Assembly: GCA_035506295.1 (NCBI GenBank)
Contig: DATJPR010000098.1
Location: 4,789 to 68,788 of the forward strand
Length of the DNA: 64,000 nucleotides
Direction of reading: 5' to 3'
Source: Bacteroidota bacterium
GTDB taxonomy: Bacteria > Bacteroidota > Ignavibacteria > UBA10030 > UBA6906
The number at the start of each line of letters is the position of its first letter. The stretch's first letter is position 1. The position numbers were made by a program, and so were the translations under genes. The notes beneath the pieces are model-generated. The model saw nothing but the letters and a program-made list of their open reading frames with translations. It did not search any database and had not been told where the DNA came from. Positions 15,294-33,445 of the stretch are shown piece by piece.

Positions 15294-15551
15294 CTATTCC
15301 CCTTCATAGTCCATGTAGAGGCTCACCGAACGACCGCACGTGCACACGAATTCCGCCGATGTGACGCGATCTCCCTCCTTGTGCAGGACCACGACAGGCT
15401 CATCCTTGCTCCCGGCGAGAACCCCAATCTTCTCCGTACCCGCGATGGAGATATGCGCCGCTTTGATGATGTTTCCCCGAACCTGCTCGGGTACGTCCAC
15501 GCGCTTATATGCAACGAGATCCAGAAACGGGCCTTCTTCAGTATTCGCCAT
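15294..15551 (-). CDS. Hypothetical 85-aa protein at the tail of the che operon
   Basis: ATG 15551 lies 4 nt after the cheB stop. The track ORF to 15683 overlaps cheB. MANTEEGPFLDLVAYKRVDVPEQVRGNIIKAAHISIAGTEKIGVLAGSKDEPVVVLHKEGDRVTSAEFVCTCGRSVSLYMDYEGE matches no family I recognise. Confidence 0.55.
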   Translation of the reverse strand: MANTEEGPFLDLVAYKRVDVPEQVRGNIIKAAHISIAGTEKIGVLAGSKDEPVVVLHKEGDRVTSAEFVCTCGRSVSLYMDYEGE

Positions 15552-15555
15552 GGCT

Positions 15556-32000: not shown

Positions 32001-33445
32001 GCCAGCTTGATGGGCGCGGCCACCGCTGAAACATGAATGGGCGATCCGTCCTTCCGCCGACGCACGGTGTCGATCTGCACAGTATTGTCGCGGTACGCTT
32101 CGCCCGCAAGACGCGCAGACTCTTCACGGTACTCCGGCGGCACGACAAGGTTGTCCAGGGTGCGACCCTTCACATCTTCCGGACCGTAGCCGAACATTTC
32201 GAGGAATTTGCCGTTGGCATCGATGACGCCGTCCTGCTGATCGGTGATGACGACCCCTTCGGGAAGGCTGCCGAACAGTCTCTGGAAGAACGCCTCCTGC
32301 ACCTTGAGCTCCTCTTCGGCGATCCTCTGCTCGGTGACGTCCAGCACCATCGAGATGAAATATTCCGGTTTGCCGAACTGATCGCGGAGGAGGGTAAGGC
32401 TCAGGAGCACTCTGACATCGCGACCGGACTTGTGGACGTAGCACCCCTCGGTCCGCTGATGAGAAAGGTCCCCGCGGAGCATTGCCGCAGCAGTCGCGCG
32501 GCTTGAATCTGCGTCACCCGGCGGCATGAAATCCTGGGCCGGTCGTCCGACAATTTCTTCTTTCGCATAGCCGAGGATCTCGCACAGCGCGCCATTCACC
32601 TGGAGAAAACGATAGTCGGTGCTGAGAAGCGCCATGCCGGCGTTCGCATTCTCAAACGCCCTTCGGAATCGTTCTTCGCTCGCCCGAAGCAGTGTCTCGG
32701 ACTCGGCCCGTTCGGTGACGTCGCGAAGGATCACGACCTCTCCCATCCGCGCACCGTCCTCTGCCTGAAGCGACGCCGTGGTCTGTTCGACCACGATGTG
32801 CCGGCCATCCCTCCCTTCGAGGGTGCTCCAGCGATGCCGGGATTCGTCCGCGGCAGTTGCGGGAATGTCCTCTCCATTGCCGAACCCCTTCAGCATGCAG
32901 ATCTCGGTCAGGGTTTTCCCCAGCGCATCGCCGAGCTTCCATCCCGTCATCGATTCGGCGACCGGGTTCATGTATGAGATGCGGGCCTGCTGATCGGTGG
33001 TGATGACGCCGTCGGCGATGCTTCGAAGCGTGGTCGAAAGGAGCCGTTCGTTCTGCTGAAGTCTCCGGTCAGTGGCATGTTTGTACACCGCCATTTCGAT
33101 GGTGGTGTAGAGATCGCGTTCTTCAAACGGTTTGAGGATATAGCCGAAGGGACTGGTGATCTTGGCGCGTTCCAGGGTTTTGCTGTCGGCGTGTGCGGTG
33201 ACATAGACCACGGGGATGTCCGTGTCCTTCCTGATGATGTCGGCGGCCTGGATGCCGTCGAGATCCCCCTTGAGGGTAATATCCATCAGGATCAGTTCGG
33301 GAGACAACTCACGCGTGGCCTTGATGGCCCCGTCGCCGGTTGAGGCGATGCCCACAACGACGTAGCCGAAGCTTCTCAGTCGTTGCTGCAAATCCGCGGC
33401 AACAATCTTCTCGTCCTCGACAACCAAAATCCTGGTTTGGGCCAT
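29081..33445 (-). CDS. Giant hybrid sensor kinase (REC, multiple PAS, HisKA, HATPase, REC, REC, Hpt)
   Basis: ~1454 aa from ATG 33445 (MAQTRILVVEDEK...) with no TM segment. At least five PAS-like units, H-box [25 protein letters not shown], two REC domains (ILIVDDNSTNR...; ILIAEDNPINQ...MDCNMPEMDG) and Hpt (IAHALKGSSNNIGA). Confidence 0.9.
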   Translation of the reverse strand: MAQTRILVVEDEKIVAADLQQRLRSFGYVVVGIASTGDGAIKATRELSPELILMDITLKGDLDGIQAADIIRKDTDIPVVYVTAHADSKTLERAKITSPFGYILKPFEERDLYTTIEMAVYKHATDRRLQQNERLLSTTLRSIADGVITTDQQARISYMNPVAESMTGWKLGDALGKTLTEICMLKGFGNGEDIPATAADESRHRWSTLEGRDGRHIVVEQTTASLQAEDGARMGEVVILRDVTERAESETLLRASEERFRRAFENANAGMALLSTDYRFLQVNGALCEILGYAKEEIVGRPAQDFMPPGDADSSRATAAAMLRGDLSHQRTEGCYVHKSGRDVRVLLSLTLLRDQFGKPEYFISMVLDVTEQRIAEEELKVQEAFFQRLFGSLPEGVVITDQQDGVIDANGKFLEMFGYGPEDVKGRTLDNLVVPPEYREESARLAGEAYRDNTVQIDTVRRRKDGSPIHVSAVAAPIKLAGEKLGLYAIYRDITDRKMADETLARERTLLRTLIDALPDFIFVKDTEGRYILANAAELQRLGEGSAEHVVGRQEDNYLPSIETRVKGRAEESVLSSGVPDINREEHIHDCHGVVRWVQTTRVPLRDDEGTIIGLVSVSHDISARRQAERDVQESAERLEKIIETVDEGITVCDLQEHYELFNSKMEEITGYSGEELNSTPDLVTRLYRDDNQRNRIAAHRRSAWESGRAGEAELLITTKSGKDKTVLVSTTLVKYKNREMLLSAWRDITSRKLAEQEMAQYAEQLLEAKSSAEAQAEVLANQTRDLEEAREQALEASRLKSEFVANMSHEIRTPMNGVIGMTGLLLETSLTPEQQEYAEIIKTSAESLLTIINDILDFSKIEAGKLALEIIDFNLRNVVDESIDMLAQRASQKHLEFVSFVTEDVPMYLRGDPGRLRQVTLNLLNNAIKFTEKGEVSLTVSVEMETETSTMVRFRVKDTGIGIPPERANRLFKPFSQADGSTTRKYGGTGLGLTISKQLVELMGGKIGVDSQPGAGSEFWFTAIMKKSPMHPPVQAEASHLVGLKILIVDDNSTNRIILSHHTESWGMHPTAVGSGSDAVDILQRAARGGEPFHVALVDMQLPDTDGYTLTQTIKSLPQTASTVVLMLTSLGNASGWSSINGLAGCLTKPVKEGTLHDTLLRLFAREPAAGEPGNGNGTKNSAAQTRPERILIAEDNPINQRVAMRMLQKVGYTASIVCNGKEAVSAVKSGRFDIVLMDCNMPEMDGFAATANIRAWEGENRRTIIIAMTANALQGDRDKALAAGMDDYIAKPVNQKDLYAMLEHWSSTVPPRTEEQAEPPSAPAAETPVRKVILNLERLKELEALMDGDDPGWLRGLIEQYLEDTSARLVDLRKAMDAGEAQKMGKIAHALKGSSNNIGAVIMAEPLQRLQRLGENGSLDGAKSLVADAERFFIDVKAEFEVQYLTQENSR

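Follow-up and report, generated by a model that had tools for sequence, protein, structure and literature searches.

We analysed a block of chemotaxis (che) and phosphorelay genes on a 64,000-nucleotide (nt) stretch of contig DATJPR010000098.1 (assembly GCA_035506295.1, Bacteroidota bacterium, an uncultured wetland member of the Ignavibacteriota), referred to as the window, whose coordinates are used throughout. The block genes all lie on the minus strand, from the start codon ATG at 33445 to a final stop at 15294, and were resolved into 16 open reading frames (ORFs) over ~18 kb by ORF listing, start-codon inspection and Pfam scans. The block was compared with ~20 related Ignavibacteriota/Bacteroidota loci (labelled L0xx), anchored on FapA first and on HDOD second. 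Two parts are distinguished below. Module A (33445-24559, 8.9 kb) comprises a hybrid histidine kinase (HK), a receiver (REC) protein of the type named REC-Cys4, orf120, HDOD, a second hybrid kinase and a second REC-Cys4, and module B (24556-15294) comprises FapA, HEAT, CheR, REC, CheY, two CheZ, CheA, CheB and orf85. In transcription order, the genes are as follows.

29081..33445, minus strand: HK1, hybrid histidine kinase of 1454 amino acids (aa); Pfam REC, five PAS, HisKA, HATPase, REC, REC and Hpt
28530..29084, minus strand: REC-Cys4 number 1, 184 aa; Pfam Response_reg only; start overlaps the HK1 stop by 4 nt
28159..28521, minus strand: orf120, small conserved protein; overlaps the HDOD start by 26 nt
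27336..28184, minus strand: stand-alone HDOD protein, 282 aa; Pfam HDOD (PF08668), 207.9 bits, model positions 2-196 of 196
25128..27311, minus strand: HK2, hybrid histidine kinase of 727 aa; Pfam HisKA, HATPase, REC and Hpt, with a GAF-like N-terminus
24559..25131, minus strand: REC-Cys4 number 2, 190 aa, by Pfam; start overlaps the HK2 stop by 4 nt, end lies 2 nt before fapA
23180..24556, minus strand: FapA/DUF342, 458 aa; Pfam FapA_N and FapA (PF03961 with PF20250), 168.4 and 84.8 bits
21734..23164, minus strand: HEAT (PBS-lyase type) repeat protein, 476 aa; Pfam HEAT_2, 152 bits
20820..21707, minus strand: CheR methyltransferase; Pfam CheR_N and CheR
20440..20814, minus strand: single-domain receiver of 124 aa, a CheY paralogue by Pfam, 37% identical to CheY
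20014..20403, minus strand: CheY, by Pfam; best match to the NCBIfam CheY model at 138 bits, below its 189-bit cutoff
19221..19982, minus strand: CheZ-like paralogue a, 253 aa; Pfam CheZ, 33.8 bits against a cutoff of 30.7
18552..19175, minus strand: CheZ-like paralogue b, 207 aa; Pfam CheZ, 34.1 bits
16669..18555, minus strand: CheA; Pfam Hpt, H-kinase_dim, HATPase_c and CheW (P1, P3, P4, P5), with the His motif VHTIKG
15556..16644, minus strand: CheB, REC plus methylesterase, by Pfam
15294..15551, minus strand: orf85, small conserved protein and last gene of the block; homologues in L005-L014, L036, L038, L039 and L040

An earlier note on this DNA had announced 17 genes, although its own list also gives 16 and no gap is big enough for another one. 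ORF listing and Pfam scans reproduced its gene order and domain assignments, as well as its largest intergenic gap (45 nt, between the two CheZ genes). The five overlapping junctions that it counted became four with the best-supported starts: 4 nt for each HK/REC-Cys4 pair, 26 nt for orf120/HDOD, and 4 or 22 nt for CheZb/CheA. In total, 15 junctions of at most 45 nt follow one another. A crude hydropathy scan revealed no transmembrane-like segment in the block proteins, except for three marginal hydrophobic windows within globular CheA and CheB domains, and sequence inspection indicated that the phospho-acceptor residues are complete. Since the kinases contain no transmembrane-like segment they are predicted to be cytoplasmic and, given their PAS or GAF-like domains, their earlier description as cytoplasmic, PAS/GAF-rich proteins holds.

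In a genome scan with a 9-sequence FapA alignment, a 27-sequence set being too divergent, the closest genomes were metagenome-assembled genomes of Ignavibacteriota and Bacteroidota. Modules A and B are adjacent in at least 11 genomes (L005-L008, L010-L014, L041 and a Joint Genome Institute (JGI) contig). The order of the window is repeated in L005-L008, L012-L014 and L041 as far as the contigs extend, with FapA identities of 39-76%; the L041 contig ends within cheA and its FapA is truncated. L010 and L011 are devoid of HK1 and of the first REC-Cys4 and have one CheZ, and the JGI contig carries A next to B without FapA. The linkage of phosphorelay and che genes is thus not a one-off but a conserved arrangement, shared by at least 11 related genomes at FapA identities as low as 39%.

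The two modules also occur apart. The most distant locus (L015, FapA identity 38%) reads kinase, sigma-54 activator, REC, one ORF, CheW, FapA, HEAT, CheR, REC, CheY, CheZ, CheA, CheB and flgB: it has module B without A, with no HDOD or phosphorelay genes and with cheW abutting fapA. Conversely, module A without B was observed in at least four loci (L037, L038, L039 and L042), which hold no CheA, CheB or CheZ when viewed within plus or minus 10 kb. L038 and L039 carry an HK1-like gene, REC-Cys4, orf120, HDOD, HK2, REC-Cys4, orf85 and flgB; L037 carries REC, HEAT, orf120, HDOD, HK2, REC-Cys4 and flgB; in L042, orf120-HDOD-hybrid HK lies beside flagellar regulators, and two inserted genes in inverted orientation separate it from a gene for a 200-aa REC. 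L040 reads HEAT, CheR, REC, CheY, a 48-residue CheB remnant, orf85, orf120, HDOD, HK2, REC-Cys4 and flgB. Between cheY and orf85 (L040 positions 3313-3940), only this C-terminal CheB remnant is left, the scar of a deletion that took away cheZ, cheA and the bulk of cheB but spared the HDOD/phosphorelay unit. Finally, L036 has a full che core preceded by orf120-HDOD and by no more of HK2 than its sensor part.

Because B is found without A (L015), A without B (L037-L039, L042) and B in a decayed state (L040), modules A and B are separable cassettes. The invariant cassette is orf120-HDOD, usually with a hybrid kinase and REC-Cys4, which stays with the flagellar genes while the che core comes and goes. 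By the same comparison, cheW is ancestrally adjacent to fapA, and in the lineage of the window the phosphorelay cassette, together with TonB_C and the MCP (methyl-accepting chemotaxis protein), sits between them. Likewise orf85, which gave no family match in Pfam or NCBIfam, still precedes flgB in relatives whose che core is gone (L038 13708-13959, L039 13642-13887, L040 3692-3937). It therefore belongs with the flagellar cluster and not with the che genes.

In module A, the parts of a His-Asp-His-Asp phosphorelay are complete by Pfam and sequence inspection: HisKA, HATPase, receiver and Hpt with their acceptor residues, and a separate terminal receiver. In HK1, the H-box MSHEIRTP, three receiver Asp and the Hpt motif HALKG are visible. 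For HK2, GAF matches were below threshold, and GAF_3 was recorded for the L040 orthologue. The kinase cores of HK1 and HK2 share 44% identity and the two REC-Cys4 proteins 53%, indicating that the two HK/REC-Cys4 pairs are paralogues. The overlap between HK stop and REC-Cys4 start is also present in the gene calls of L037-L041, with the exception of a 155-nt gap after HK2 in L038. Given these 4-nt overlaps and the paralogous pairs, the simplest wiring would be that each hybrid kinase signals to its own overlapping REC-Cys4. In the closest genome (L001/L005, 76% FapA identity), two genes of 878 and 568 aa are called in place of a single HK1 orthologue (1094-5474); the break between them, around 3607-3768, may stem from a frameshift or an assembly error, or the gene may be truly split. 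Where the window has the MCP, the first ~860 nt of L005-L007 encode another, divergent CheB directly upstream of HK1, which shares 30-35% identity with the block CheB.

The HDOD protein is represented by more than 120 clusters at 58% identity or above, and its PDB relatives are structural-genomics HDOD proteins, including Cj0248 of Campylobacter jejuni (E = 2.6e-11). A homologue of orf120, or an ORF of like size (92-123 aa), overlaps the HDOD start in all HDOD-bearing loci examined, its assignment in L042 and the JGI contig being by gene position and size alone. No family above threshold was found for orf120 in Pfam or NCBIfam. We considered whether orf120 and HDOD could be a split HD-GYP-type protein and rejected this candidate, as a single weak NCBIfam match (E = 0.0012) received no further support.

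The receivers of the REC-Cys4 proteins are of the OmpR/PhoB/PleD type, and a fold search with the whole protein recovered receiver domains only. Their tails (28530-28710 and 24559-24740, minus strand) span ~45 residues and contain the pattern C-x2-C ... H-x2-C-x2-C, in which the C, C, H, C and C are invariant. In the AlphaFold2 model of REC-Cys4 number 2 (predicted local distance difference test score, pLDDT, 90), the receiver is followed by a long linker helix, a small zinc knuckle (beta-knuckle) and a C-terminal helix. The tail had no Pfam or NCBIfam model above threshold, no relative in a PDB sequence search and, for a confident tail-only model (pLDDT 86), no PDB fold match with Foldseek; a text search for its CKKIRD motif was without matches. 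By contrast with these empty annotation searches, a profile search with the tail collected 24,848 clusters (50% identity) at E <= 0.001. The family is spread over many phyla and is also found alone; in the examples checked, the domain is nearly always C-terminal, behind REC, PAS, GAF, HAMP, beta-propeller or MASE6 sensors. This C-terminal position behind sensor domains suggests that the Cys4 tail is an output domain, large in membership and unannotated.

Module B has the components of an ordinary Che pathway: CheA, CheY, CheR/CheB and a CheZ phosphatase, with CheW and an MCP in the upstream unit described below. CheZ is present, and CheC, CheD, CheX and CheV were not found in the window. CheZ-like a carries the catalytic-type motif QVQDITAQQI (DxxxQ) and the C-terminal peptide RQQAADEIV, and CheZ-like b, which is 30% identical to it, carries QVQDITSQQI (DxxxQ) and RQDQADQIV; several relatives have a single CheZ only. 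In CheA, a Pro/Ala-rich linker occupies the P2 slot and no P2 was detected. All relatives have the 124-aa REC in their che core, even L015 with its lack of phosphorelays; for this reason CheA is likely to be the donor of this receiver, which the earlier note had left without one. The HEAT gene accompanies CheR in all che-bearing loci examined, and PDB sequence matches of its product are alphaRep-like repeat proteins. Both the N-terminal region and the beta-solenoid domain of FapA were matched, and its orthologues form 33 clusters. A zinc-finger protein considered as a known DUF342 partner was dropped, since the literature matches for DUF342 and chemotaxis were false (the eLife paper concerns DUF3426). 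A literature search for the Wuichet-Zhulin class returned nothing for this phylum.

The boundaries of the block were searched for sigma-54 elements (pattern TGGCAC-N5-TTGC, at most one mismatch) and for terminator-like hairpins, with the following result.

33791..38934, minus strand: upstream receptor/coupling unit, with a sigma-54-type element at 38934-38920, REC (38449-about 38868), CheW (37407-37901), TonB_C (36752-37222) and MCP (33791-36724)
33719..33752, minus strand: terminator-like hairpin of 15 pairs, 9 of them G-C, followed by a T run, 39 nt after the MCP stop
33518..33532, minus strand: sigma-54-type -24/-12 element TGGCACACGATTGGC, one mismatch to the consensus with GG-N10-GC kept, 73 nt upstream of the ATG at 33445
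15195..15209, minus strand: perfect sigma-54 -24/-12 element TGGCACCGCACTTGC, between orf85 and a 53-aa ORF with a transmembrane helix; it heads the unit running from flgB and flgC to fliE and onward

The elements at 33532-33518 and 15209-15195 had been missed in the earlier note. In L005, L006 and L007, the former has a counterpart that precedes the HK1 start by 76-77 nt (counted from the end of the element, as in the window), and a perfect element is in the position equivalent to the latter in L005-L007, L037 and L040. Five matches are on the minus strand, four of them in gaps between units (38934-38920, 33532-33518, 15209-15195 and 2975-2961, the last after flgE) and the fifth (58599-58585) inside a coding region. 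In total, 7 matches were obtained against 3.45 expected by chance, and 8 of 100 shuffles reached 7, so the count alone is not significant and the case for sigma-54 is carried by placement and by conservation in relatives with diverged flanks. Terminator-like hairpins showed no excess (16 against 17.6 expected), and the one at 33752-33719 is the sole strong one between 14500 and 34400. A sigma-70 scan, whose model does not cover the promoters of the host phylum, gave 7 matches against 4.7 expected. Inside the block, neither a minus-strand sigma-54 match at up to one mismatch nor a strong hairpin was found. A sigma-54 activator (45311-46729) and a kinase (46754-48406) belong to the same cluster; GG-N10-GC elements upstream of units and an enhancer-binding activator, as in a sigma-54-dependent flagellar regulon, are thus both present, and Pfam scans of the large ORFs found no rpoN in the window. 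As the elements and the hairpin bound the block from outside, with none inside, and a sigma-54 activator is encoded in the cluster, the block is probably a single sigma-54-dependent transcription unit. Public RNA-seq and metatranscriptome runs included none with this region, whose sequence was present only in wetland and peat DNA runs.

Pfam scans of all large window ORFs located the sole MCPsignal domain and the sole stand-alone CheW of the window in the unit just upstream, as previously described, and this unit is bounded separately by its own sigma-54-type element and the hairpin. The statement that the che core lacks cheW and an MCP is therefore right in that both lie outside the block, but it reflects where the operon boundary falls, since both are in the preceding unit of the same cluster.

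We compared this arrangement with known systems. Among the closest is the 71-gene flagellar and chemotaxis cluster of Ignavibacterium album (IALB_2496-2566). In Roseithermus sacchariphilus, the che genes are close together and their locus tags list CheA, CheZ, CheY, CheY, CheR, MCP and CheW in the same relative order (PMC7409140). As far as the descriptions given in the two papers go, neither mentions HDOD, hybrid kinase/REC-Cys4, FapA or HEAT genes in the che cluster, whereas the block has the 8.9-kb phosphorelay cassette between the MCP and fapA. The fla/che operon of Bacillus subtilis is likewise very long and co-directional, with chemotaxis genes riding with flagellar structural genes, and in Bacillota loci L019-L027 a FapA/DUF342 gene lies ~2 kb downstream of cheB-cheA-cheW; the block differs by its sigma-54 promoter type and by CheZ in place of CheC/CheD/FliY. 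To our knowledge, the Bacillus operon contains no hybrid kinases or HDOD proteins. As in the FleS/FleR (FlrB/FlrC) systems of Pseudomonas and Vibrio, the window has a kinase and a sigma-54 activator, and -24/-12 elements precede the flgB unit and two signalling units. However, these systems have no REC-Cys4, and we know of no FleS/FleR model in which one promoter class serves both the che genes and a phosphorelay cassette.

The best precedent for kinases integrated in a che pathway is the Che3 cluster (CheA3/CheS3) of Rhodospirillum centenum, a che-like cluster with a second hybrid PAS kinase, in which phosphate flow between the kinases was shown (PMC3868531). Che3 controls cyst formation and not flagella, its CheS3 has no Hpt/REC-Cys4 partner, and the extra kinases of the block, in contrast, form a cassette that survives without CheA. 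HDOD proteins alter swimming in Pseudomonas, Xanthomonas and Campylobacter upon loss or overexpression, with no known mechanism (PMC11813219, PMC11004494). These motility-linked proteins (PSPTO_4229 of P. syringae, GsmR of X. campestris, C. jejuni Cj0248 and Pseudomonas SadB) are stand-alone or receiver-fused, and for none has membership of a conserved orf120-HDOD-hybrid kinase-REC-Cys4 set within flagellar genes been described. The Vibrio FapA, a flagella-assembly protein, binds EIIAGlc only when the latter is dephosphorylated (PMC6877527). The FapA proteins of V. vulnificus and V. cholerae are of the same Pfam family as the block FapA, a likeness at the family level; the window contains no link to the phosphotransferase system, unlike Vibrio, and some relatives that otherwise retain the block have a truncated FapA or none. 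Vibrio FapA is reported to be polar, and Park et al. in 2016 reportedly saw its glucose-induced loss from the flagellated pole.

In chemotaxis, MCP, CheW and CheA form a receptor complex that phosphorylates CheY, phosphorylated CheY acts on the motor, CheZ resets CheY, and CheR and CheB ensure adaptation. Module B with the upstream CheW and MCP would be this ordinary flagellar chemotaxis pathway of the lineage. Module A would be a signalling cassette of the flagellar cluster, with orf120, HDOD, an Hpt hybrid kinase and REC-Cys4 as its core and the HK/REC-Cys4 pair duplicated here; that it stays by flagellar genes where che genes are missing from the locus argues that it follows the flagellar cluster rather than CheA. 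The cytoplasmic hybrid kinases, with their PAS or GAF-like domains, would autophosphorylate, and the phosphoryl group would pass from His to Asp to the His of Hpt and then to the REC-Cys4 whose gene comes next and overlaps that of the kinase. Once phosphorylated, this receiver could act on a partner through its long linker helix and Cys4 knuckle. This partner would most likely be a flagellar assembly or motor protein, such as FapA, HDOD or a basal-body component. The intracellular state (redox, energy, small ligands) would in this way tune flagellar assembly or rotation in parallel with CheA, and not through it. Action by protein contacts is proposed on the basis of the motility phenotypes of HDOD proteins and the binding of Vibrio FapA to dephosphorylated EIIAGlc.

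Taken together, we are inclined, with moderate confidence, to see the block as a probable sigma-54-driven unit composed of a separable che core and a flagellum-associated HDOD/phosphorelay cassette working in parallel to CheA. The adjacency of A and B gives co-expression and is not evidence for a shared phosphotransfer wiring. The earlier note had instead suggested that the kinases are integrated with CheA signalling. In such a scheme, the Hpt domains of HK1 and HK2 would phosphorylate or drain CheY, the 124-aa REC or CheB, leading to energy taxis without a dedicated MCP; the genes are indeed co-directional, nearly gap-free and adjacent in at least 11 genomes, receivers outnumber the obvious donors, and the phosphate flow between CheA3 and CheS3 within one che cluster of R. 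centenum is a precedent (PMC3868531). However, module A persists where the locus has no che genes (L037, L038, L039, L042) and after the cheZ/cheA/cheB deletion of L040, the 124-aa REC and CheY are in a che core without phosphorelay in L015, and both hybrid kinases are translationally coupled to a REC-Cys4 of their own. With the cassettes separating in L015, L037-L040 and L042, integration with CheA is not supported: such wiring is possible, though rather unlikely and not the best reading, and cross-talk of the Hpt domains to CheY or CheB is less likely as the main function because the cassette survives without che genes. Module A could otherwise regulate flagellar gene expression or flagellar number, REC-Cys4 binding DNA or RNA or acting on the sigma-54 machinery. 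The module is indeed placed between a FleS/FleR-like pair of kinase and sigma-54 activator on one side and the flgB operon, which depends on sigma-54, on the other; nucleic-acid binding is common among small Cys4 knuckles, and OmpR/PhoB-type receivers are usually paired with a DNA-binding output. Yet the searches with the tail revealed no family or fold that binds DNA, its ~45 residues contain no recognisable helix-turn-helix, and we judge this role quite improbable.

It could also be that internal promoters of a kind outside our scans divide the block into several transcription units, modules A and B being neighbours in a compact genome without co-regulation. Cassette orders do vary, L040 for example having the che core, orf85, a sigma-54 element and then module A; a sigma-54-type element (one mismatch) precedes the orf120-HDOD-HK-REC-Cys4 unit by ~300 nt in L037 and L040; and the sigma-70 scan has the limit given above for this phylum. 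Against this stand the 15 consecutive tight junctions, four of them overlapping, the 2 nt that separate REC-Cys4 number 2 from fapA, and the absence of any strong hairpin or sigma-54 element inside the block, and we consider such a patchwork very unlikely. Some observations nevertheless weigh against the composite of two parallel cassettes that we favour. The single operon is deduced from spacing and motifs, and internal promoters may exist, sigma-54 being the only promoter type modelled for the phylum. In the genomes with che-less loci, che genes may be present at other sites. Modules A and B are still adjacent at ~40% FapA identity, which could reflect a functional tie beyond co-expression. 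Lastly, the Cys4 tail has no relative of known function, and it may have a nucleic-acid target or take part in cross-talk with CheY, REC or CheB.

The window is one long co-directional motility region, and the block lies inside a flagellar supercluster of ~45 kb. Downstream of the block are flgCB, fliE, fliF, fliG, fliH, fliI, fliK, flgD and flgE, and upstream of it the MCP, CheW, three more PAS/GAF kinases, the sigma-54 activator, a LuxR-type regulator, fliD, fliS, flagellin and giant glycosyltransferase/TPR genes. The MCP (33791-36724, minus strand, 977 aa) has a four-helix-bundle-like sensor, a HAMP domain and an array of HAMP_2 units (381 bits; poly-HAMP), and no C-terminal pentapeptide of the NWETF type. 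The TonB C-terminal-domain protein encoded between cheW and the MCP gene (36752-37222, minus strand) has one N-terminal hydrophobic segment, and L036 has a DnaJ-domain gene in its place. Between the upstream REC and cheW, 547 nt (37902-38448) contain only orf143, of low plausibility (Arg/Ser/His-rich, no family); in relatives, this slot holds an ABC_sub_bind-like gene (L015) or a 76-aa ORF before cheW (L036). Two big cytoplasmic kinases are encoded between the sigma-54 activator and the upstream REC (39060-45271, minus strand), REC-PAS-PAS-HK-REC (771 aa) and REC-GAF-PAS-GAF-HisKA_2 (1288 aa). They are not at that position in L015 and L037, so the cluster gathers kinases in more than one place. 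Flagellin, fliS and fliD are immediately preceded by a run of giant glycosyltransferase/TPR fusions of up to 1360 aa (53482-63713, minus strand), which has the look of an island for flagellin glycosylation. Two small ORFs lie downstream of the block. The 53-aa ORF between the perfect sigma-54 element and flgB (14988-15149, minus strand) has one hydrophobic helix; ORFs of 52-57 aa are at the same site in L001, L002, L004 and L038, and tblastn at E <= 1e-4 gave no link between them. The other, of 97 aa and without a family match, is between flgC and fliE (13522-13815, minus strand), where relatives have ORFs of 91-101 aa.

We found no description of this conserved arrangement in the literature searched. 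It is not that of a textbook che operon, as the earlier note had pointed out. With moderate confidence, we read it as a lineage-specific juxtaposition of a standard che core and a separable HDOD/phosphorelay cassette, a variant of the fla/che supercluster theme, and not as a che pathway with absorbed kinases. Since the cassettes come apart in related genomes, co-transcription of kinases and che genes does not imply shared wiring here. The orf120-HDOD-hybrid kinase-REC-Cys4 set is a conserved flagellum-linked unit across a poorly studied phylum, and it gives HDOD proteins concrete genomic partners. Once found, the function of the Cys4 output domain would re-annotate tens of thousands of sensor proteins. 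More speculatively, and rather doubtfully, the cassette could be an unrecognised, CheA-independent pathway of flagellum control in which Cys4 binds to the flagellar base, FapA or HDOD in a phosphorylation-dependent manner, with Cys4 as a new output superfamily of ~25,000 clusters. If true, such a pathway would provide taxis-like or on/off control of motility in genomes having lost their che genes.

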